Below, piece after piece: positions 7,399 to 26,403 of a stretch of DNA of 64,000 nt. The translations under genes and the position numbers were made by a program. Source of the DNA: Alphaproteobacteria bacterium (GTDB lineage: Bacteria > Pseudomonadota > Alphaproteobacteria > Paracaedibacterales > VGCI01); the NCBI GenBank assembly GCA_016870095.1, contig VGCI01000006.1:7349-71348 (forward strand), given 5' to 3'. Position 1 is the stretch's first letter. Each line of letters begins with the position of its first letter. The notes beneath the pieces were generated by a model that saw only the letters and a program-made list of their open reading frames with translations, did no database searches and was not told the origin of the DNA.

Positions 7399-8976
7399 AT
7401 GATGAGTTTCTTTAAAAAATGGTGTTGTCTGGTGTTGTCAATTTCTATGATGGTATCGACCATAGCGCCAACCTGGGCGGTGAAAATCAGTCATCACGAA
7501 CAATTTTTTCCATCCTCCTCACCCTCGACAGCACCATTAAAAGAATGTGTCGAAAGCTATAAAATCCAAGAAAAACCTCTTAGCCAACCTCTTCCAAAAT
7601 ATATTGATTCCGCCTCACAAAATTCTAAACCTACGAGAGTTGCATTTGCAAATTCTTCTAACCCTCTTCTTTCATTCGTGACATTTGCCTGTGCGCATCC
7701 CCTACAAGCCCTGATGTTCTTATTTTTAATGCAAGAAAGCTTCTTTAAATGTTATCCCCTTGTTAAAGTTCCTGGCGTTGCTGCTGGTCTTTCCGTATCG
7801 GGACTAAATCAAAATTTAACGTGGAATGGGGTGTTGGGTTCACCTGTTCTTCTTAATTCTATTGTTGTTTATGATACAATTCCTGAAGAGGTAAATGTTC
7901 ATTATGATTTAACCTTAACCCTTAGTGATATTACGGCGGGTAATCTCACTTGCAATGGAACGACTTCTCTTCAACCATCTTTTATTGGAGGCGTTTGGAG
8001 CGCGTATGGACTGATTACACCTGTAAATGATTTGTTGTTGAATTGTAAGCTATTATATATTCCTTTAAAAAGTTTTTTTAATTTAACAATTGCTGGAAAA
8101 GTTCTTAGTATTGAGCCGCAAGAAAAGATTCAGGGCAATATCACTATTACAAATGTTGGAAGTTCGTTATCGACTGGTTCAAGTTTAAATGGAATGACCA
8201 CACCATCAGCCTCAAGCCAACCAAGTTCATCTTCTATCTCTGCTTCATCTCTAGGTACCGCTTCAACAATTGGGACGAGTCAATCTCAATCCGGTACGAG
8301 CAATCAAAATTCCAGTTCTTCAACTGAGAATTCTAATGTTATGAGCGGGTTAACGGATTCTCTATCAAATGGATTTTCACCAACCAATGACTCTTTCGGA
8401 ACCTCTCTATTGTCTAACAATATACCCCCAACAAATCCTATGGCCACAACAACCAATTCCCTTCTAAATATTATGAACAGTTCTCAAGACAAATCAGCAA
8501 TGATTATTGGAAGTAGTGTAGGGGGATGTGTCATCCTCACAGGTGCTATCGTTGCCCTGATTGTGGGCTATAAACGACAGTGGTGTGGTTTAAATTCTTC
8601 AGCGAAACAATCTCTAGTTCAAGATAAAGCTTTAGAGTCTGGACAATCTAAGCAATATGCATCTTTGGGACTATATCATAATCTCCCTCAAGGTGCGGGA
8701 CAGTCTGATACAACGAACTACTCGAAACCGCCAGCCCCTGATTCTTTTGATCAAAGTCCGGGAGGCCTCTACACCAATGCACCCATCGCGCCGGCAGGGT
8801 CTCCCCAAGGAAATGGAGTATACACTAGTGCCCCCCTTGCTCCGGCTAATAGTAATGGTTCTGGACAAAATCCTTACATTGCCTGTGATGCCCCTTTAAC
8901 TTCTCCATTGAACAATTATGATCGGCTTACAAGTAGCGAGGCTGCTTACGTGGAATGCGGTGCGCCTTTGGAGTAA
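7399..8976 (+). CDS. hypothetical surface/membrane protein with a Ser/Thr-rich stalk, single TM helix and Tyr/Pro-repeat tail
   Basis: Signal peptide MMSFFKKWCCLVLSISMMVSTIAPTWA. The S/T-rich low-complexity run spans about 8161-8490 and the TM helix AMIIGSSVGGCVILTGAIVALIVGY spans 8497-8571. The 134-aa tail contains 8 Tyr. Confidence 0.6.
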   Translation: MMSFFKKWCCLVLSISMMVSTIAPTWAVKISHHEQFFPSSSPSTAPLKECVESYKIQEKPLSQPLPKYIDSASQNSKPTRVAFANSSNPLLSFVTFACAHPLQALMFLFLMQESFFKCYPLVKVPGVAAGLSVSGLNQNLTWNGVLGSPVLLNSIVVYDTIPEEVNVHYDLTLTLSDITAGNLTCNGTTSLQPSFIGGVWSAYGLITPVNDLLLNCKLLYIPLKSFFNLTIAGKVLSIEPQEKIQGNITITNVGSSLSTGSSLNGMTTPSASSQPSSSSISASSLGTASTIGTSQSQSGTSNQNSSSSTENSNVMSGLTDSLSNGFSPTNDSFGTSLLSNNIPPTNPMATTTNSLLNIMNSSQDKSAMIIGSSVGGCVILTGAIVALIVGYKRQWCGLNSSAKQSLVQDKALESGQSKQYASLGLYHNLPQGAGQSDTTNYSKPPAPDSFDQSPGGLYTNAPIAPAGSPQGNGVYTSAPLAPANSNGSGQNPYIACDAPLTSPLNNYDRLTSSEAAYVECGAPLE

Positions 8977-10056: not shown

Positions 10057-10947
10057 TTAAGGCCGCCGCCAAACTTCTGCCACTTCTTTTAAGAAGGTAT
10101 AAAAGGCCTGAATTTTTGGCGAGCCCTCCAAACTTTTATGATAGGTAAAGTAATAAGGAATTTTAACATCCGGGTGATCGGGGAAAACATCCACAAGTAA
10201 ATTTTTTTCCACAGTTGTGCGCTCATAGACGAAAGATCCTATCCCGAGTCCTTCCAGTAATGCGTTGCGAAGTGCCGTTCCACTATTGACTTCGATATGG
10301 GCGCGGTATTGATTGTTAGGATCTCGATATTCATGTAAAATATTGTGAGATTTAAACGATTCCGGGTCAGATAGATTATAAAAAATGAGCTTGTGATTTT
10401 TCAGATCCTCAAAAGTTTTGGGGGAGGAATGAGATTTGATATAGCTCGGAGAAGCGTATACCCTTTGTAAGCCGTCATAGAGGTGATGTTGAATAATATC
10501 CGGATCAGAAAATTTTGTGGGAACAAGACCTAAATCAGCATCACCAATTTGAAATTGAAAAACATCGGCCAAAGACATAAATTTAAAATTAAGGTGGGGA
10601 TATTTATGGGTAAGGGCTGGGAGGTATCTGAAAATGTGATCGATGGTTCCTGTGCCCATTACAATTTTTAAAGTCCCTGAAGGATTGAGCTTTCTTTCAC
10701 GAATTAGAGCTGCTCCCTGATCAAGCCGACCAATGGTTTGTTGGCATAATTCTAAAAATTCTTGGCCTTCCGCTGTTAAACTGATGCCTCTTGAATGGCG
10801 AATAAAAAGAGTTATTCCCACTTCGTTGGCTAGAGCGGTCATTTGACGCCCTAAATTAGGTTGCGTGGTACCAACTTCTTGGGCGGCTTTACTCAAATTT
10901 TTAGTGCGCGCCACGACCGTAAAGGATTTAAGGTGGGTCAGTTCCAT
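10057..10947 (-). CDS. LysR family transcriptional regulator
   Basis: N-terminal wHTH MELTHLKSFTVVARTKNLSKAAQEVGTTQPNLGRQMTALANEVGITLF followed by a LysR substrate-binding region. Confidence 0.9.
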   Translation of the reverse strand: MELTHLKSFTVVARTKNLSKAAQEVGTTQPNLGRQMTALANEVGITLFIRHSRGISLTAEGQEFLELCQQTIGRLDQGAALIRERKLNPSGTLKIVMGTGTIDHIFRYLPALTHKYPHLNFKFMSLADVFQFQIGDADLGLVPTKFSDPDIIQHHLYDGLQRVYASPSYIKSHSSPKTFEDLKNHKLIFYNLSDPESFKSHNILHEYRDPNNQYRAHIEVNSGTALRNALLEGLGIGSFVYERTTVEKNLLVDVFPDHPDVKIPYYFTYHKSLEGSPKIQAFYTFLKEVAEVWRRP

Positions 10948-11251
10948 TTTAAATAGCCTCTATATATGGGAAATAATAATTATGCCATCATAATTATGAA
11001 TACCTTAATATCCTCTTAAAACCCATTTCATTATTGCACTTAATACAATGTCTAAAAACTTATATCACAAGAGAAATAGAATTGGGAAAAAATATGCCAG
11101 ATTAAGGAGGTGGGTATTACAGGGATCGTAAGAATTACTTTATATAGGGTACAATTTTTGTTTTTTTTACTAAATACTTAATATTAGAATATTTGAGAGT
11201 GTTTAGGGTTTTGACCTTACCATGTTATTGTTATCTTTTCTCTAAGATTTA

Positions 11252-11277
11252 AGAGAAGGCTTTTTATGGCCTTCTCT
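11252..11277 (-). terminator. hairpin downstream of the sORF pair (possible terminator)
   Basis: Perfect 9-bp stem AGAGAAGGC (11252-11260) / GCCTTCTCT (11269-11277) with an 8-nt loop. There is no clear U-tract on the reverse strand, so confidence is low. Confidence 0.35.
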
Positions 11278-11345
11278 AGAACCTATATGAACAAATTTAT
11301 TTTTTCATTAACATAATTACGTAAAATAACTAAAATTTTTGTAAC

Positions 11346-11411
11346 TTATTCGCCCACAAATATAGGTGAATAAGCTTGAGCTACTTTTGATTCGATAGTT
11401 AGTTTTTTCAT
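11346..11411 (-). CDS. sORF-A, 21-aa peptide MKKLTIESKVAQAYSPIFVGE (unknown function)
   Basis: ATG to TAA spans 22 codons, with AAGGAAG 6 nt upstream of the ATG. It is a paralogue of sORF-B with 18/21 aa identical. Differences are mostly synonymous, and similarity ends at the start and stop codons. Confidence 0.5.
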   Translation of the reverse strand: MKKLTIESKVAQAYSPIFVGE

Positions 11412-11513
11412 GTTAGTCTTCCTTATTTAAAAGTGAATTATAATTTATACAAAGAGTTGTTTTAAAGAATAACGGCTCTGCCTATTGCAGAGAGCAGTTA
11501 AAATCATTCCTGT

Positions 11514-11579
11514 TTATTCACCTACAAATATGGGTGAATAGCATTGTGCTACTTTTGATTCAATGGCTAGTTTTTGCAT
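11514..11579 (-). CDS. sORF-B, 21-aa peptide MQKLAIESKVAQCYSPIFVGE (unknown function)
   Basis: Same length and frame as sORF-A, with GGAG 6 nt upstream of the ATG at 11579. In-frame ATGs also occur at 11582, 11591 and 11594, so the N-terminus could be up to 5 aa longer. Confidence 0.5.
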   Translation of the reverse strand: MQKLAIESKVAQCYSPIFVGE

Positions 11580-12176
11580 CATAATCTCCATCATTAAAAA
11601 TATTATAAATACCTTGAGAAAGTGTTGAGGCTGTTTAGTGGCTTTTTTTAATTATTTTGCGAGCCTCTTTATACCTCTGTAGACTAGCCCACGATAATTT
11701 TTGGACCAATAAATATTTTTAATTTAATTGTCTTAAAATACATTTTAACAAACATAAAACCATTAATAATTTATTGAATAAACTTAGAAATTCTTTTAAC
11801 TATCTTCTAAAGCGACAAAACGCCACGCCCTAAAATAATTTTTGAGATATACAATAACTGCAGATGTTTTATTTAAAATATGCAATTCACTATTTGTCAT
11901 TTTATTTATGAATATTTACTTCACGCTTTCCAATGTATAGGCGTAAAGCCGGTGTTCACCCTGCATCAACAAGGGCAATACCCTTGATGAATTGACAATC
12001 AGAATTACCTTGCCCCTTAACCAGATGTTTACGCTCTTCCCTCTATGATTAAGGTTAATAAGGAACACGAAAGGCACACACGAATAATAAGATTCTGACA
12101 AAGTGCAAGCAGTTAAGGAGTTTGAGTCAATTTTTCTCTTTTTCTGCATTTCATGTCCAATAGTTTGTGAGGAAAA

Positions 12177-13055
12177 ATGAAACAATTTTCATCGGGTTCG
12201 ACTACAAAGCATGCGGACCTGGAGTATATCCGCCAGTTGATGGACCAGCCCCTACTGAAACGGGATGAAGAACATGAATTAGCGATTGCCTGGCACGATC
12301 GACATGACGAAAAGGCTTTACATCTCCTGGTGCAGGCTTATATGCGGTTAGTAGTGAGTACAGCAGTGCGATTCCGCCATTATGGCATTCCCTTATCAGA
12401 TCTTATTCAAGAAGGTAATCTTGGGCTCATGTATGCGGCTGAGCGGTTTGATCCAGAAAGAGATGTTCGTTTTTCCACCTATGCCAGGTGGTGGATACGG
12501 TCTCATATTCAAGAATATATATTGCGCAATTGGTCTATTGTTAGGACCGGCTCCACATCATCTCAAAAGCAGCTCTTTTTTAATTTGCGTCGTCTGAAGG
12601 CGCAATTGGCAAAAATGAGCACAGACCAAATGACGATGGAAGAAAGAGGACATATTGCTGAAACTTTGCAAGTTCCTTTACATGATGTTGAGGATATGGA
12701 AAATCGGCTTTCTTCACATGATTTATCTTTGAGTCATCCGATGAGTGAAACGGGTAGTGATGATTGGGTGGATTCATTGGCAGATCAAAATCCTGATCCC
12801 GAAACTTCAGCTGTTATTAATCTTGACGATAGTATTCGCCGATTATGGATTCAAGGCGCCATGCATTATTTAAGCCCGCGAGAGCGCATGATCATAACTG
12901 TGCGTCGGTTAGCAGATCATCCCACAACTTTAGAAGATGTTGGTAAAAAATTGAAAATTAGTAAAGAGCGCGTGCGTCAGTTGGAGGTCAGAGCGATTCG
13001 CAAGATGCGGCATCATTTGTTACACAACATTCAAGATTTAAAGGAAGTGTTGTAA
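12177..13055 (+). CDS. rpoH: RNA polymerase sigma-32 (heat-shock sigma factor)
   Basis: Sigma-70 regions 2-4 are present (QEGNLGLMYAAERFDP, STYARWWIR) together with the RpoH box QKQLFFNLRRLK. GAGGA lies 4 nt before the ATG. Confidence 0.93.
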   Translation: MKQFSSGSTTKHADLEYIRQLMDQPLLKRDEEHELAIAWHDRHDEKALHLLVQAYMRLVVSTAVRFRHYGIPLSDLIQEGNLGLMYAAERFDPERDVRFSTYARWWIRSHIQEYILRNWSIVRTGSTSSQKQLFFNLRRLKAQLAKMSTDQMTMEERGHIAETLQVPLHDVEDMENRLSSHDLSLSHPMSETGSDDWVDSLADQNPDPETSAVINLDDSIRRLWIQGAMHYLSPRERMIITVRRLADHPTTLEDVGKKLKISKERVRQLEVRAIRKMRHHLLHNIQDLKEVL

Positions 13056-13114
13056 GACAACACATCGCTTCTTACCCCGTTGGGGTGAAGAAAATTCTGC
13101 TCGTAGAGGAAGCT

Positions 13115-13957
13115 ATGCATAACAGTGAAACGATGAAAGTCACATTTTGGGGCGTGCGAGGGAGCCACCCTCAGTGCAAATCCGCTTTCGATAAGGTGGG
13201 GGGGCATACCAGCTGTGTCAGCTTAGAAATGGGCGATCAATATCTGTTTCTTGATGCGGGAACGGGGATTATTGACGCAGGGAATGAAATAATGAAGCGG
13301 GGAATCAATAAGGCTACTCTTATGATTTCTCATACTCATGTGGACCATATTGGTGGATTAGCATTTTTTAAACCTCTCTATCAGTCAGATTTTGAATTAT
13401 CAATTATTGCCAGCGGGCTTTTGTTAAAAGACGATACGGAAAAGGGAATAGAATCTGTGCTGGCAAAAGTTATGTCACCCCCTTATTTCCCCATTCCCTG
13501 GAATGAAATTCCCTGTACTCGCTCCCTTATAGATGTTCCCATCGGCGGACAGTTTTCTTTAAATCATTTGAAGGTATCTACAATAGCTTTGGATCATCCG
13601 GGGGGGAGTTCTGGCTATCGGATTGAGTGGGATGACAAATCTATTTGTTATATTACAGATACGAGTCATACTCCTGGCGTTCTGGCTCCCCATTTGATTG
13701 AATTTATACAGCGCACCAATTTAATGATTTATGATTCAACTTTTACTGAAGAAGAGTTTGCTTTAAAATCAACCTGGGGGCATTCAACTTGGAATCAAGG
13801 TGTTGCTTTAGCTAAGGCAGCGGCAATTGGAGAGCTTGCTCTTTTTCACCATGACCCAGATCATGATGATGTTTTTATGGCCGATATTGAATGTCAGGCT
13901 CAAAAGCACTTTTCCCATACCTTTGTGGCACGTCAAGGAATGACGCGGGAAATATAA
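13115..13957 (+). CDS. MBL-fold metallo-hydrolase
   Basis: HxHxDH motif ISHTHVDHIGG and family-typical N-terminus MKVTFWGVRGS. The start is uncertain (GTG 13085, ATG 13115 with GAGGAAG, ATG 13133). GTG 13085 lies inside a small hairpin that follows rpoH. Confidence 0.8.
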   Translation: MHNSETMKVTFWGVRGSHPQCKSAFDKVGGHTSCVSLEMGDQYLFLDAGTGIIDAGNEIMKRGINKATLMISHTHVDHIGGLAFFKPLYQSDFELSIIASGLLLKDDTEKGIESVLAKVMSPPYFPIPWNEIPCTRSLIDVPIGGQFSLNHLKVSTIALDHPGGSSGYRIEWDDKSICYITDTSHTPGVLAPHLIEFIQRTNLMIYDSTFTEEEFALKSTWGHSTWNQGVALAKAAAIGELALFHHDPDHDDVFMADIECQAQKHFSHTFVARQGMTREI

Positions 13958-13999: not shown

Positions 14000-14758
14000 A
14001 TGTATTATTGGTTTCCATTTTTAGGATTTTGCATGCTCTTGATGATGCCTGCATTTTCTCTTGATGATCTCAAAACTAAAGAAATGCATGCTTATCCAAA
14101 AATGTGCAGAATATGGGACACAATTGAAAAAGTAAGATTTCCCAATCAAAGTCCTCTCATTCCCCATGCGATTTTCTATGACGGGGGAACCTGCTTGGAT
14201 ATATTTGTTACATTTGAGAGCGATAGTGGATTTATGGAATCTACGGGCGAAGAAAACGATGTTCCCGAAAGTCCTCGCTTTTTACCTTCGCCGAGGGCTG
14301 CCAAAAAAGAGGATAATGGTCATTTTGGAAACGAAACTCTTGACGGAAAATTTAGATATTACACTCAAAATGCAACTCTGCAAGATTCTAATATCCTTCC
14401 AGGGCCAATCACTATAAAATTGTGGTGCTATCGAGATTCGACGGGACTTAAAAAATTATACTTCACCAAAAGCAGTGCTGTTCTGCGATTATCCATACCA
14501 TCTTTAGACAGTAAATCTTTTAATTCGGATATGGCCAAATACCTTATAAAGGTCCTACAAAGTGGTTTTCGATCCCCACCTCAGCAAGGCATGGAATGCG
14601 TAGATTGGCGTGGGGAAGATAAAGTTATCAATATGGTAGTAAAAACATTAGGGCATCATTTTATTAGATATACGAATCGACCATTCTGCTCGGTCTTTAA
14701 AGGGATTGTTAACGAGTGTCGAGAAGAACGGAAAATTTTGGATGAAGTTGAAAGGTAA
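14000..14758 (+). CDS. hypothetical secreted protein (Cys-containing, no recognised domain)
   Basis: A 252-aa ORF with N-terminal hydrophobic signal YYWFPFLGFCMLLMMPAFS. A terminator hairpin follows it. Confidence 0.5.
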   Translation: MYYWFPFLGFCMLLMMPAFSLDDLKTKEMHAYPKMCRIWDTIEKVRFPNQSPLIPHAIFYDGGTCLDIFVTFESDSGFMESTGEENDVPESPRFLPSPRAAKKEDNGHFGNETLDGKFRYYTQNATLQDSNILPGPITIKLWCYRDSTGLKKLYFTKSSAVLRLSIPSLDSKSFNSDMAKYLIKVLQSGFRSPPQQGMECVDWRGEDKVINMVVKTLGHHFIRYTNRPFCSVFKGIVNECREERKILDEVER

Positions 14759-20070: not shown

Positions 20071-22524
<2,454 letters not shown>

Positions 22525-22566
22525 TCAGTTTTTAATACAGTTGCTCTATAATTGTGACAGTTAAAA

Positions 22567-23739
22567 TCAAATTGTCAAAGTTGCATTATGAACCGTCAAG
22601 AATTGTGCTTGAGGGTTCAGGTCTTGGAAGGCAGACTTTTCGGTTCCGGTCATCCAGACTTGAAAAGGGCCCTTAGAAGACTCAAGAGATGAATCTTTGG
22701 CGGGCCCACAAATTTCTTGAAATAAAATCAGCCGGTGCTGATCATCCAAGTGTGCTGCAATGTCATCTAACAATAAGATAACTGGGCACGTACGATAATT
22801 TTCTTGAACTTTTATAAAAGCCAAGGTTAAGGCAAGTAACAACATTTTCTGTTCTCCCGTGGAGCATAGCTCTGCTGGAAGCTGTTTGGCAAGATGGTGT
22901 ACTTGAAAATCACTCCGGTGAGGCCCAATGGCAGCTCCGCCAGCCTCTCCATCTTGATAACGATTACTTGCAAGCCTTGCTGCATATTGGTCTTCAACGG
23001 CAAGCGCCGGTTGATTTGTTGTCCAGCATTCAATTTCACCTTTCATTTCAGCGCGAAATTGAGGAAATGGAAAAGATTTTTCGATTCGTTGAGCACTTTC
23101 CAAGCTTTTAACGACCTGTTGCCGAGCCACCACAATGGCGACGCCATCTTCTGCCAAGTGTCTTTCTAAAGTTGAAACCCACAAGGGATCATAACGTCCT
23201 TCTCGCAGGAGGTGTGCACGTTCGCGCAAATGGTGTTCATATCGATGAAGTCTTGATGCATGATTTGCATCCACTGCAAAAACGAGTCGATCAATAAACT
23301 TTCGCCTAACGGATGCAGGCTCTAAGAATAGTCGATCCATTTGAGGCGTTACCCAAATGACACTGATCCAATCAGTTAAGGATGCCTGACTTTTTGCTGG
23401 CGTACCATTAATTTTAACCACACGGCGTTCGTTTCCTATGGCTGTGTAATCTAATCCAGTTCCCAATTGAACAGGACCGTGATACGTTTCTACGGTAGCT
23501 GCAATTGCCCATAAGGTTGGATGAGTCATATCATCATTCACTTTTTTAAGATTGGTGACTTGTGACAGCTTAATACTTCGCAATCCTCGGCCGGGAGACA
23601 AAAAAGAAAGAGCTTCCAAAATGTTTGTCTTACCTGCTCCGTTAGGTCCTGTCAGAACGATAGTGTCAGCGTGAAGATGGAGGTCTAATCCTTGATAATT
23701 TCGAAACTGATGCAACGCAAGTCGCGACAAACCCATCAT
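22567..23739 (-). CDS. recF: DNA replication and repair protein RecF
   Basis: LALHQFRNY...LTGPNGAGKTNILEAL (Walker A) and the signature region. The start is set at the MMGLSRL ATG (23739) instead of the longer track ORF. Confidence 0.93.
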   Translation of the reverse strand: MMGLSRLALHQFRNYQGLDLHLHADTIVLTGPNGAGKTNILEALSFLSPGRGLRSIKLSQVTNLKKVNDDMTHPTLWAIAATVETYHGPVQLGTGLDYTAIGNERRVVKINGTPAKSQASLTDWISVIWVTPQMDRLFLEPASVRRKFIDRLVFAVDANHASRLHRYEHHLRERAHLLREGRYDPLWVSTLERHLAEDGVAIVVARQQVVKSLESAQRIEKSFPFPQFRAEMKGEIECWTTNQPALAVEDQYAARLASNRYQDGEAGGAAIGPHRSDFQVHHLAKQLPAELCSTGEQKMLLLALTLAFIKVQENYRTCPVILLLDDIAAHLDDQHRLILFQEICGPAKDSSLESSKGPFQVWMTGTEKSAFQDLNPQAQFLTVHNATLTI

Positions 23740-23845
23740 AGGTGAAGGTTGAACAGAAATATTTTCTTTGCATTGTCGTATCTGCACTTAATGATAGTCC
23801 CTGCCATACTTTTTTATCATGTGATATCTTGCGACCTTGCTTTTA

Positions 23846-24964
23846 TCAGACCCGCATGGGCATGAGAACATAAGTTGCTTCTTGATTTGTCATCCCCTTA
23901 ATAATGGCTGGCGCATCCCCATTTGCCAGAACAACTTGAGCTTCATCCTCATCAATTTGTTGGGCAATATCAAGTAAATAACGAGCATTAAAACCGATTT
24001 CAACGGGAGCATGCGGAAAGTCGATCGCAATCTCTTCGGTGGCATTACCTAAATCATGACTTGCTGCAGATAGGGTGAGCATATTGTTGTTTAAACTCAT
24101 TTTTATAGTTCTAATCTTGTCATTCGAAACGGTAGCCACTCGATCGACAGCTGCTGCGAAAGTTTTTGCATCAATAATGGCAATTTTATCATTACCACTC
24201 GGAATGGCTTTTTCATATTCCGGGTAAGTTGCATCAATTAATCGAGAACTTAACACGGCATTCTCAAACGCAAATTCAATGCGTGTTGGAGAGAGAGCAA
24301 CTTGAACTTCAGTGGTTGTATCATCTACCAATTTGCGAGCTTCTGTGATGGTTTTGCGTCCAATAATGATGCCAGGGATATTTTCGGCTCCTTCAGGCAA
24401 AGGGACTTCAATATAGGCAAGGCGATGCGCATCTGTGGCGACGGAGCGAAGGATTTTTTGCCCTTCTCTTTCCAGTGTATGAAAGTGTATTCCATTTAGA
24501 TAATAGCGGGTTTCTTCTGTGGACATAGCAAATTTTGCACGGTCTAAAAGCTTTTTAAATATCGCGATGGGTAAAGAAAAATGGAAGGGTAATTCCCCTT
24601 GAGTGAGTTGGGGAAAATCTTCGGGATCCAGGCAAGACAGATTAAAACGAGATCGCCCCCCTTTTAAGTTTAATTGGCCTGTTTCCGACAAATAAGTCAG
24701 TTCAATCGTGGACCCTTCGGGAAGTTTTCTCACAATATCAAATAGCATTTGAGCAGAGACAGTCGTTGTACCTGGCTCAGTCACAATTGCAGGGACTGTC
24801 TCTATGAGAGCAAGATCCGTATCTGTAGTAATTAAACTTAAGCCCATGGGCGTTGCGCTTAAAAGAACGTTACTTAGGATGGGGATTGTTGTTCTTCGTT
24901 CAACAACACTTTGACCATGGGAAAGGGCTTTTAAAAAAGCGGATCTATCAACTGTTAACTTCAT
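23846..24964 (-). CDS. dnaN: DNA polymerase III beta sliding clamp
   Basis: MKLTVDRSAFLKAL...ILSNVLL N-terminus, 372 aa, and its position between dnaA and recF. Confidence 0.95.
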   Translation of the reverse strand: MKLTVDRSAFLKALSHGQSVVERRTTIPILSNVLLSATPMGLSLITTDTDLALIETVPAIVTEPGTTTVSAQMLFDIVRKLPEGSTIELTYLSETGQLNLKGGRSRFNLSCLDPEDFPQLTQGELPFHFSLPIAIFKKLLDRAKFAMSTEETRYYLNGIHFHTLEREGQKILRSVATDAHRLAYIEVPLPEGAENIPGIIIGRKTITEARKLVDDTTTEVQVALSPTRIEFAFENAVLSSRLIDATYPEYEKAIPSGNDKIAIIDAKTFAAAVDRVATVSNDKIRTIKMSLNNNMLTLSAASHDLGNATEEIAIDFPHAPVEIGFNARYLLDIAQQIDEDEAQVVLANGDAPAIIKGMTNQEATYVLMPMRV

Positions 24965-24972
24965 GACTTAAA

Positions 24973-26403
24973 TTATACCTCCAAGTTTCTACGTAAAATA
25001 TCGAGATCATCTGAAAATTCTCGATCTTGAATTCTGACTTCTTCAACTTTGCGCACAGCATGTAAGACGGTTGTGTGGTCGCGTCCACCAAATTTTCTGC
25101 CAATTTCAGGAAGAGATCGAGATGTTAATGTCTTAGCCAAATACATAGCGACTTGACGAGGACGGGCAACATTTTGAGATCGTCTAGCAGACTGCATATC
25201 TGAAATCTTAATGCCATAATACTCTGAGACACGCTTTTGAATATCCTCGATTGTGATACGTCGATCATTCGCTTTTAAAAGATCTCGCAAAACATCATGA
25301 GTTGTTTCCAAGGTAATTTCGCGGCCCACGAGAGTGGCATGGGCGATAATACGATTTAAGGCACCTTCAAGTTCGCGGATGTTTGAACTGATCTTGCGCG
25401 CTAAAAATTCCATAACATCTTTTGGAATTCCTATATTTAAAGTATCTGCTTTGGCGTGTAAAATTCCTAATCGTAATTCATAGGTTGTCGGATGAATATC
25501 CGCCACCAGTCCCCATCCAAGGCGGGATTTTAAACGATCTTCCATGCCTTCCAAATCAGAAGGAGACTTGTCAGCAGAAATAATTATTTGATGATTTTGA
25601 TCAACGAGAGCATTGAAAGTATGAAAAAATTCTTCTTGCGTCGTTTCTTTACCGCTGATGAATTGAACATCATCAATCATGAGAACATCAACGGAACGGA
25701 ACAGTTCTTTGAATGACACCGTATCTTTGAAACGTAAGGCACGAATAAATTGATACATAAATTTTTCTGCTGATAAATAGATAACGCGACGTTTGGGATG
25801 ATAGGTTTTAATGTGCCAGGCAATCGCATGCATTAAGTGGGTTTTACCAAGACCAACCCCGCCATATAAGAACAGGGGGTTGAATTGAGCCGTTTGAGAT
25901 TCTGCAACGCGTAAAGCAGCGGCATAAGCAAGTTCGTTAGGTTTGCCAACCACAAAATTATCAAAAGTGAATCGAGGATCAAGGGCTGCGCCAAGAACAT
26001 CTCGATCTATGCCAATGGATTCTTCATCGATGAGAGAAGCTTCTTTGGGACTTTGAGGAGTGCCCGCTGGGAGAATTTCATCTGGCTGTTGGGAAGGTAG
26101 CGGGACCGGAGTGCCCATTTTAACAATAACTTCAACTGCCGTAATAGAGGGATTTAGGCCTAGCCAGAGGAGCCGAATGCGTTCCACATAATGAGAAACA
26201 ACCCAATCACGCATAAAACGCGTTGGGGCAGCAATTCGAACAGTGTTTCCCAAAACATCGATTACAAACAGGGGTTTAATCCAGCTCTTAAACACAGCTT
26301 CACCAAATTCTAACCGCAACTGCTCACGAACTTTTTCCCACTGAGGGATAGTTTCGGTAGTATGATCTATGTCTTTTGATTCTGTTAATGCCAGCGCTGT
26401 CAA
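24973..26403 (-). CDS. dnaA: chromosomal replication initiator protein DnaA
   Basis: AAA+ Walker A GGVGLGKTHL and the domain IV DNA-binding helix GGRDHTTVLHA. It starts at TTG. Confidence 0.96.
   Translation of the reverse strand: MTALALTESKDIDHTTETIPQWEKVREQLRLEFGEAVFKSWIKPLFVIDVLGNTVRIAAPTRFMRDWVVSHYVERIRLLWLGLNPSITAVEVIVKMGTPVPLPSQQPDEILPAGTPQSPKEASLIDEESIGIDRDVLGAALDPRFTFDNFVVGKPNELAYAAALRVAESQTAQFNPLFLYGGVGLGKTHLMHAIAWHIKTYHPKRRVIYLSAEKFMYQFIRALRFKDTVSFKELFRSVDVLMIDDVQFISGKETTQEEFFHTFNALVDQNHQIIISADKSPSDLEGMEDRLKSRLGWGLVADIHPTTYELRLGILHAKADTLNIGIPKDVMEFLARKISSNIRELEGALNRIIAHATLVGREITLETTHDVLRDLLKANDRRITIEDIQKRVSEYYGIKISDMQSARRSQNVARPRQVAMYLAKTLTSRSLPEIGRKFGGRDHTTVLHAVRKVEEVRIQDREFSDDLDILRRNLEV

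Follow-up and report, generated by a model that had tools for sequence, protein, structure and literature searches.

Two tandem small open reading frames lie upstream of a LysR-type regulator gene

By examining a 64-kb stretch of an alphaproteobacterial contig (VGCI01000006.1), the whole of which we call the window, or W when it is compared with other contigs, we characterized two tandem small open reading frames (sORFs) located next to a gene coding for a LysR-type transcriptional regulator (LTTR). Both sORFs sit in the 1.2-kb intergenic region between the LysR gene (10947..10057, minus strand; 296 amino acids, Pfam HTH_1 and LysR_substrate) and the divergent gene coding for RpoH (σ32; 12177..13055). 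They are 21 codons long and lie on the minus strand, upstream of and co-oriented with the LysR gene, as described in an earlier examination of the DNA letters alone (hereafter the sequence-only reading). The upstream copy, sORF B (copy 1; 11579..11514), encodes MQKLAIESKVAQCYSPIFVGE followed by a stop codon, and the downstream copy, sORF A (copy 2; 11411..11346), encodes MKKLTIESKVAQAYSPIFVGE, also followed by a stop codon.

When re-read from the sequence, the two copies were indeed identical at 55/66 nucleotides (nt). Seven of the 11 differences fall at codon position 3, three at position 1 and one at position 2, and our recount agrees with the previous one that the amino acid is altered in 3 codons. 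Taken from the A/B pair alone, this third-position excess is only suggestive; it is the orthologues described below that make it significant. The similarity does end at the sORF boundaries, since an ungapped comparison of the 100-nt flanks gave 37% identity upstream and 26% downstream, that is about chance for sequences of 40% GC. No further copy was found in the 64-kb window. Each copy is preceded by a Shine-Dalgarno (SD) sequence on the same strand, AGGAAG for sORF A (11423-11418) and GGAG for sORF B (11589-11586), in both cases 6 nt ahead of the ATG. A mechanical list of open reading frames (ORFs) gives copy B as 26 amino acids (11594..11514) because of further in-frame ATGs upstream, but the ATG at 11579, and thus the 21-amino-acid form, agrees better with the family alignment and with the SD spacing.

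We compared the window with contigs from metagenome assemblies of uncultured organisms, numbered with an L. The strain-level contigs L001-L008 carry identical sORFs and therefore give no population-level signal. The Logan contig SRR28595019 (L006, 5,098 nt) starts exactly at the ATG of sORF A (L006 1-66), probably because the assembly broke within or close to the duplicated segment.

A family of sORFs is linked to the LysR gene

Orthologous loci were found by using the LysR gene as an anchor: we collected LysR homologues at graded identity and compared the intergenic regions of their contigs. This yielded a family of 12 sORFs of 20-24 codons in about nine metagenomic lineages, namely W, L012 (two copies), L017, L021, L013, L019, L027-29, L014, L026 and L030. 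All 12 have a GGAG-type SD located 6-8 nt upstream of the ATG, and all are co-oriented with the orthologous LysR gene, their stop codon lying 127-566 nt ahead of the LysR start. The LysR orthologues that carry an upstream sORF are about 55-89% identical to that of the window. In order of decreasing LysR identity, the relatives are L017 (89%; MQKLTIESKVTQSYSPIFVGE, single copy), L012 (79%; two copies, ending in SPIFVGA and SPIFVGC), L013 (76%; MDRVSCESKVTLGFSPIFVAINK), L019/L020 (73%; MERISYERKVNQTFSPIFTQ), L021 (72%; MKKIICEAKVTQGYSPIFVHN), L014 (64%; MEKINYEQNVSQLYAPIFIAADFK), L026 (56%; MERINLSALINQYFCPITIKG) and L030 (55%; MEKIILLGTLNQYFCPITIKK). The LysR homologue P0027 (L031), which has only 186 nt of upstream sequence on its contig, was left out of the tally of sORF presence. 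The sequence-only reading had named beforehand the behaviour of the frame in related genomes as the check to be made. At the orthologous positions of the roughly nine lineages, we found that the start codon, the SD and the frame are kept, with neither stops nor frameshifts.

The genes on the other side of the sORF vary from locus to locus (rpoH, an ABC transporter gene, a histidine phosphatase gene, rbfA, integrase genes or a phospholipase D-like gene), so that LysR is the only constant neighbour of the sORF. As a LysR-independent check, a profile made from the peptide alone and built as head-to-tail doublets was searched against called proteins. It retrieved one called protein, P0106, an over-extended ORF ending in MERISYERKVNQTFSPIFTR, which lies 168 nt upstream of a 296-amino-acid LysR gene in all three contigs. 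This peptide-only match is an unbiased confirmation of the sORF-LysR linkage. In L027 (79-6523), L028 and L029, the pair is found among two tandem phage-integrase-family genes, a resolvase gene and a ParA-like gene followed by a small ORF, and L027 additionally has an IS1595 transposase gene near the pair. These surroundings suggest a plasmid or integrative-element context and a possible mobility of the pair as a unit.

The family had escaped annotation, as the sequence-only reading had assumed for the two copies in the window: no gene is called at the sORFs in any source contig, none is called between rpoH and LysR in the source assemblies, and the family is otherwise called only as spurious over-extended ORFs. 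The exact LysR protein occurs in freshwater metagenome assemblies (e.g. JGI 3300020109) and more distant LysR homologues are labelled Candidatus Paracaedibacter. The family is distributed in a narrow clade of uncultured freshwater alphaproteobacteria related to Paracaedibacter.

Regarding the duplication, all lineages more distant than W and L012 have a single sORF copy. By aligning L017 (300-940) with positions 10940-11760 of the window, we observed that the 5' flank of its sORF matches that of W copy B while the 3' flank matches that of W copy A. Given these mosaic flanks, the pair found in W and L012 would be a clade-specific tandem duplication, which either was collapsed in L017 by recombination or arose after the L017 split.

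No known family was recognized, in line with the sequence-only reading. First, Pfam-A (DUF1127 and all other families), NCBIfam (including its precursor models for ribosomally synthesized and post-translationally modified peptides, RiPPs, and its leader-peptide models) and PHROGs gave no peptide match at E≤10, queries of 21 amino acids having a low sensitivity in such searches, and a profile search of the PDB with the peptides gave a single chance-level match (E=1.3). Second, the whole window had no match in Rfam at gathering thresholds, and only three chance-level matches at E≤10, none of them over the sORFs; the Rhizobiales small RNA (sRNA) families of the AbcR type were included. Third, the pattern YSPIFVGE followed by a stop had 0 matches in 185,579 species-representative genomes. 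In the metagenome collection it gave two chance matches, one in a hairpin (L010) and one out of frame (L011). The broader pattern ESKV-x3-[YF]SPIFV gave one chance-level match, in a metagenome-assembled genome of an Asgard archaeon. Viral contigs (IMG/VR) had no match to a degenerate amino-acid-level DNA pattern, and nothing relevant was found in the literature searched for the peptide motif.

The reading frame is under purifying selection

In the seven closest sequences, the annotated frame contains 0 stops whereas the other five frames contain 2-19 stops. Also, amino-acid identity is 0.73 in the annotated frame compared to 0.53-0.64 elsewhere, at a nucleotide identity of 0.78. Among the five closest sequences, 13/19 minimum substitutions are third-position changes (p=0.0019), and pairwise pN/pS values in the six closest sequences range from 0.05 to 0.44, as expected from the purifying selection on the peptide that the sequence-only reading had proposed. 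The lowest value, 0.05, was obtained for sORF A against L012 copy 2, while A against B gave 0.20, indicating that both tandem copies are constrained. All four third bases are in use in the codons for Pro16 and Val19. In the divergent pair L026/L030, read from the sequences, the peptides differ in their N-terminal half and share NQYFCPITIK; the C-terminal part of the gene has four nucleotide changes, three of them synonymous.

The family alignment has M1, P16 and I17 invariant and E7, V10, Q12 and F18 near-invariant, with a variable N-terminal half, and defines the conserved core V10-x-Q12-x-[YF]14-[SAC]15-P16-I17-[FT]18-[VIT]19. The last 1-5 residues vary in the relatives (…VGA, …VGC, …VHN, …VAINK, …FTQ). 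Hence, the C-terminal YSPIFVGE that had been described as invariant is so within this genome, but its final GE is not conserved in relatives. The peptides have grand average of hydropathy (GRAVY) values of -0.78 to +0.46, that is about 0, with charged residues spread along the 20-24 amino acids and no transmembrane segment, and we agree that they do not resemble type I toxins. They also have no signal sequence, no leader/core organization, no amino-acid runs and, as already observed, no Gly-Gly leader.

These patterns bear on whether the conserved object is a peptide at all. The codons for YSPIFVGE form an imperfect palindrome (11517-11540 in copy B and 11349-11372 in copy A), owing to which the opposite strand reads a look-alike …YSPTN[IM]GE. 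The segment could then be a duplicated stretch of DNA or a protein-binding site in which frames are open by chance. Such a non-coding origin would fit the inverted repeat TATTCACC-N10-GGTGAATA in codons 14-21, whose 8-bp arms are perfect in copy B and have one mismatch in copy A, as well as the many short ORFs that AT-rich intergenic DNA gives. However, the palindrome is lost in L012 copy 2, in L013 and in more distant members while the peptide is kept, and for this reason we rejected the reading of the C-terminal codons as a binding site or hairpin. Moreover, one of six frames stays open with a third-position excess (p=0.002), the SD and its spacing are kept in all members, and the protein can be recognized where the DNA flanks cannot be aligned. 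We consider a non-coding origin extremely improbable.

Alternatively, the loci could produce dual-function or mainly regulatory sRNAs, that is base-pairing transcripts of about 120-250 nt comparable to AbcR1/AbcR2, in which the ORF would play a secondary part, like SgrT in SgrS. Small tandem units with terminators adjoining an LsrB-like LTTR do have a precedent in Rhizobiales (PMC7486931). In addition, some synonymous sites are unusually constant, the string GAATCAAAAGTA being identical but for one base in L012 copy 2 among six of the seven closest sequences, and the intergenic DNA around the sORFs is conserved at 71-77% between W and L012. On the other hand, substitutions are codon-periodic, with amino acids kept where nucleotides change, and distant lineages share only a recognizable peptide and the SD, their flanks being unalignable. 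Neither a relevant Rfam match (E≤10) nor a conserved secondary structure was found, and L012 copy 2 and L013 no longer have the C-terminal palindrome of copy B. The gene order is also different, as vtlR of Agrobacterium has trxB upstream and the AbcR genes downstream. A mainly regulatory RNA is therefore unlikely in our view. The statement of the sequence-only reading that the locus is neither a DNA repeat nor a structured RNA holds, inasmuch as the palindrome and RNA structure are unconserved and distant flanks do not align.

Together, these comparisons, all drawn from sequence, suggest that the sORFs very probably constitute a genuine coding family under purifying selection and linked to LysR.

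Candidate transcription signals around the sORFs

The (T/A)ATGGAG-N7-8-ATG block is the sole conserved block immediately preceding the sORF in eight aligned lineages. Further upstream, a motif search by expectation maximization (EM) identified a conserved AT-rich element, CAATTAAATTAAAAATATTTATTGG (11706-11730, minus strand), 151 nt upstream of the ATG of sORF B, with roughly the form AAATTA-N3-TTAAAA-N4-5-T-N-TTG. It was also found in L012 (3427-3451), L013 (3549-3573), L019 (922-946), L026 (124-148), L021 (761-785) and L014 (3188-3212). Relative to the sORF ATG, the element is located at -149 to -157 in W, L012, L017, L013, L019 and L026, at -128 in L021 and at -91 in L014, whereas the intervening DNA does not align among these lineages. 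A single instance is found in each locus and in the whole 64-kb window. The EM log-likelihood of the element (91.1) is about 4.8 standard deviations above that of mononucleotide shuffles (80.8±2.1). We did not see it upstream of two LysR homologues for which no sORF was seen (L022/L024, and L031 with 186 nt only). The element could be a putative UP-element with a -35 box or, equally, a regulator-binding site. Candidate -10 boxes are found 17-18 nt downstream of it, which would imply a leader of about 95 nt. The same search returned a second motif (TGTSRTGGG…), the positions of which were inconsistent between loci.

In the predicted leaders of L013 (3607-3665) and L026 (181-241), we noticed SD-like and anti-SD-like arms, GGAGAUA…UCUCCCA, about 35 nt upstream of the true SD. 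The corresponding SD/anti-SD leader switch was dropped, since stability was not above that of shuffles and there was no consensus structure: folding z-scores of the leaders ranged from +0.06 to -2.15, and RNAalifold predicted no consensus pairs in the aligned leaders. When only the leader was folded, the minimum-free-energy structures left the SD free in all six lineages; folds that included the sORF gave a mean unpaired probability of 0.29-0.66 from the SD to the AUG.

Hairpins follow both copies, as had been noted before. The one located 3' of sORF B (11468..11497, core 11492-11476, minus strand; CTGCTCTCTGCAATAGGCAGAGCCG then TTATTCTTT) is terminator-like with a T-rich tail. Its pairing, read from the alignment, is kept in L012 via a compensatory change (G-C in W to A-T), and the matching L012 stem reaches -15.6 kcal/mol with a U-rich tail. 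The hairpin 3' of sORF A (11276-11253, minus strand; GAGAAGGCC-ataaaa-AGCCTTCTC) starts 70 nt past the stop; it is terminator-like with a weak T-tail and is conserved in L017 too. A terminator-like hairpin is thus present after both copies in W and after the first copy only in L012, and L013 has a very strong terminator 3' of its sORF.

Between the sORF B hairpin and sORF A, we found a sigma-70-like promoter candidate for sORF A (11465-11437, minus strand; TTAAAA-17-TATAAT). It has 10/12 consensus matches and is a consensus match only, the total count of promoter-like matches in the region being not above that of shuffles. Another promoter-like site, TTCATA-16-TATTAT, lies directly upstream of the LysR gene, inside a block conserved between W and L012. 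In terms of nucleotide identity, W and L012 share 85% over sORF B (L012 3578-3643), 83% over sORF A (L012 copy 2) and 79% over the LysR gene, compared to 39% over the spacer between the sORF and LysR.

The LysR partner and the genomic surroundings

The LysR protein has no NCBIfam equivalog. Its best PDB relative is 9HH1 (E=3e-29, 105 bits over the full length; next 6e-22), which is the LsrB (= VtlR) protein of Agrobacterium tumefaciens (PMC11975290). GcvA is among the better NCBIfam and PDB matches, far below the family cutoff. In our reading of the alignment with LsrB (numbering as in PMC11975290), the conserved redox cysteines of LsrB face Leu (C144) and Thr (C273). The trxB gene is not adjacent: the neighbours of the LysR gene are rpoH and the sORFs upstream and an outer membrane β-barrel protein gene downstream. 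By searching the 220 nt upstream of the sORF in nine lineages on both strands, we found no VtlR box (GCAT-N3-TG-N3-T), and classic LTTR boxes upstream of the sORFs were absent or at chance level.

The genes found within ±15 kb of the sORFs are those for a nucleoside transporter, def, fmt, ferredoxin, CarD, the outer membrane β-barrel protein, a metallo-β-lactamase (MBL) hydrolase, a major facilitator superfamily transporter, penicillin-binding protein 1, gyrB, recF and dnaN. This inventory matters for the proposal that the peptides are precursors of a secreted signal or of a RiPP, one of the roles suggested by the sequence-only reading. Their short length, conserved C-terminal core and duplicated copies do resemble some RiPP precursor arrays, and position 13, which varies, is a Cys in one copy. 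However, there is no radical-SAM, YcaO, peptidase, cyclase or ABC exporter gene within ±15 kb, where the neighbours are housekeeping genes, and LysR is the sole conserved neighbour across about nine lineages. Furthermore, the peptides have neither a signal peptide nor a Gly-Gly leader nor a leader/core layout, and match no RiPP-precursor family at E≤10. Since no maturase or exporter lies nearby, a precursor role is disfavoured and we judge it highly unlikely. The other role suggested then, a small regulatory protein, is viable.

Several other features of the region were observed. Next to rpoH, a gene coding for an MBL-fold protein (13085-13957, plus strand) has a precomputed match to PF23023 (Anti-Pycsar Apyc1), a match to Lactamase_B_2 and weak similarity to RNase Z, and its synteny is kept in L012. 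Two plus-strand ORFs of 525 (7399-8976) and 252 amino acids (14000-14758) have no Pfam or NCBIfam match and are syntenic in L012 (539 and 252 amino acids). On the minus strand, 20071-26403 contains gyrB, recF and dnaN according to Pfam. The 476-amino-acid ORF beside dnaN (24973-26403) is probably dnaA, in which case the origin region of chromosomal replication would fall within the window, about 9-15 kb away from the sORFs.

Candidate functions of the sORFs

The explanation that we favour, with about an even chance of being right, is that the locus contains two tandem copies of a previously undescribed small-protein gene, which would form a conserved two-gene module with the LsrB/VtlR-like LysR regulator. 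On the narrower question of the mode of action, we hold a trans-acting small protein, rather than a cis-acting leader, to be an evenly balanced proposition. Independent trans-acting genes are favoured by the strong SD, the terminators, the promoter-like site of each copy, the constrained duplication and the long, unconserved spacer that precedes LysR. According to this model, each sORF would be expressed as a short, mostly monocistronic mRNA, copy B being transcribed from the promoter marked by the AT-rich element about 150 nt upstream and copy A from its local TATAAT promoter. The product, a peptide of about 2.3 kDa, would be soluble and cytoplasmic, and would bind a protein partner through a short motif formed by its conserved C-terminal half. 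The adjacent LysR regulator would either control the sORF promoter or be itself the partner of the peptide.

Several observations weigh against this small-protein model. First, regarding transcription, no clear terminator follows the sORF in L019, L030 or L012 copy 2, and in some lineages the sORF may therefore be the first cistron or the leader of the LysR mRNA. The AT-rich element, a putative promoter or binding site, is weak in L030 (position weight matrix score 6.6). Second, regarding conservation, the DNA around the sORFs is also fairly conserved between W and L012 (71-77%), and the sORF signal alone is modest at that distance. In addition, ribosome-arrest peptides show the same pattern as the family, in which conservation is concentrated in the C-terminal half, Pro is invariant and the tail varies. 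Third, regarding the link to LysR, no sORF accompanies the LysR homologue P0017 (L022-24), which is 56% identical, and LysR control of the sORFs is purely inferential since no LTTR or VtlR box is found at the sORF promoter.

Some of these points lead to another possibility, which was not raised in the sequence-only reading and which we hold more tentatively but regard as a serious rival, namely that the sORF encodes a cis-acting leader (arrest) peptide. It would be an upstream ORF of the LysR mRNA whose Q-x-[YF]-S-P-I-F-V motif stalls the ribosome. Stalling, perhaps in response to a small molecule, would alter termination at the hairpin or access of Rho to the spacer and thereby set LysR expression, and the tandem copies of W would be two attenuators in series. 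The strictly kept position upstream of and co-oriented with LysR, while other neighbours change, speaks for such a leader. The conservation of residues 10-19 with invariant P16 and I17, between a variable N-terminal half and a tail of 1-5 residues, is typical of exit-tunnel arrest motifs, and the core contains I-F-V, as in the stalling motif IFVI of ErmCL. The RNA signals can be accommodated too: W, L017, L012 and L013 have a terminator-like hairpin in the interval from the sORF to LysR; L019 and L030, which have no clear terminator, have spacers of 127-168 nt, compatible with co-transcription; and the AT-rich promoter-like element is found upstream of the sORF and not directly upstream of LysR.

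Other observations speak against a leader. There is no conserved antiterminator or SD-sequestering structure, as judged by RNAalifold (no pairs) and by a stability not above that of shuffles, LysR is separated from the sORF by a long spacer (127-566 nt) that is variable and unconserved, and the distances from the motif to the stop and to the hairpin vary. The TTCATA-16-TATTAT promoter-like site is located directly upstream of LysR, and a duplication in which each copy has a promoter-like site and a terminator is more typical of trans-acting small genes. Finally, we found no precedent in the literature searched for the control of a LysR regulator by an sORF or a leader peptide.

We also considered a more speculative idea that cuts across the small-protein and leader models, in which the sORF and the LysR gene would be a self-contained, transferable peptide-plus-regulator cassette. 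Two versions of it fit the evidence. The 21-amino-acid cytoplasmic peptide would either (a) act on the LysR-type regulator as its cognate ligand or anti-activator or (b) be, as a nascent chain, a new small-molecule-sensing ribosome-arrest module that gates the synthesis of the transcription factor. This idea is compatible with the data because the pairing persists while other neighbours change, with integrase, resolvase, IS1595 transposase and ParA genes nearby in one lineage. To our knowledge, no intracellular peptide-sensing LTTR has been described.

Bacterial small proteins and leader peptides shorter than 30 amino acids escape gene callers, and this sORF family is a comparatively well-supported new case. 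It represents a new family of a known class of genes, the bacterial small-protein or leader-peptide genes, and its notable trait is the fixed pairing, in a narrow clade of uncultured alphaproteobacteria, with a LysR-type regulator that is a distant relative of LsrB/VtlR from host-associated alphaproteobacteria. If the regulator turned out to have the peptide as its partner or ligand, or to be controlled by it as a nascent-chain sensor, this would add a regulatory layer undescribed for LysR-type regulators, a very large family of bacterial transcription factors. More generally, the case shows that sORFs of uncultured lineages can be validated by using an adjacent gene as anchor and comparing the intergenic regions next to its orthologues.

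Comparison with known systems

Like TnaC, ErmCL, SecM and SpeFL, the family consists of ORFs of 20-24 codons with a strong SD, located upstream of and co-oriented with one particular gene. The likeness to arrest peptides extends to the conservation near the C-terminus, the invariant Pro and the I-F-V tripeptide shared with ErmCL. In tnaC-tnaA, a hairpin or a long spacer also precedes the downstream gene, as between the sORF and LysR. Unlike in leader-peptide systems, the downstream gene codes here for a transcription factor, no alternative RNA structure is conserved, the distance to the downstream gene ranges from 127 to 566 nt, and each duplicate has its own terminator and promoter-like site.

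The sORFs also share features with the stand-alone small proteins encoded by SgrS/SgrT, Spot 42/SpfP and AzuCR/AzuC, and with the LsrB-regulated DUF1127 proteins of Agrobacterium: a very short soluble peptide that gene callers overlook, that is encoded by a short transcript having an SD and a terminator of its own, and that probably acts by binding a larger protein. In contrast, they have no sequence similarity to SgrT, SpfP, AzuC or the DUF1127 proteins, and a fixed pairing with a LysR gene is undescribed for those families.

Regarding the regulator, LysR-type genes adjoin the small transcript that they activate in GcvA-GcvB and OxyR-OxyS. Those pairs are divergent and the transcripts non-coding, whereas the units described here are co-oriented and coding. 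In Rhizobiales, VtlR/LsrB adjoins the tandem sRNAs AbcR1/AbcR2, which lie downstream of vtlR in Agrobacterium, with trxB upstream, and VtlR directly activates a few small transcripts, including those of the small-protein genes atu1667, BAB1_0914 and BAB2_0512 (PMC7486931). LsrB itself has been described as restricted to Rhizobiales (PMC11975290). As in that system, an alphaproteobacterial LTTR lies here physically next to tandem small transcription units; unlike in Agrobacterium, these are found upstream of the regulator, are coding and match neither AbcR nor any other Rfam family. The analogy is useful, but membership in the VtlR/LsrB group fails on the cysteines, the trxB synteny, the gene order and the VtlR box. 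What the analogy offers is a model for the role of LysR at this locus, that of an LTTR which adjoins and activates small transcripts, as VtlR/LsrB does with AbcR and small-protein genes, GcvA with GcvB and OxyR with OxyS.

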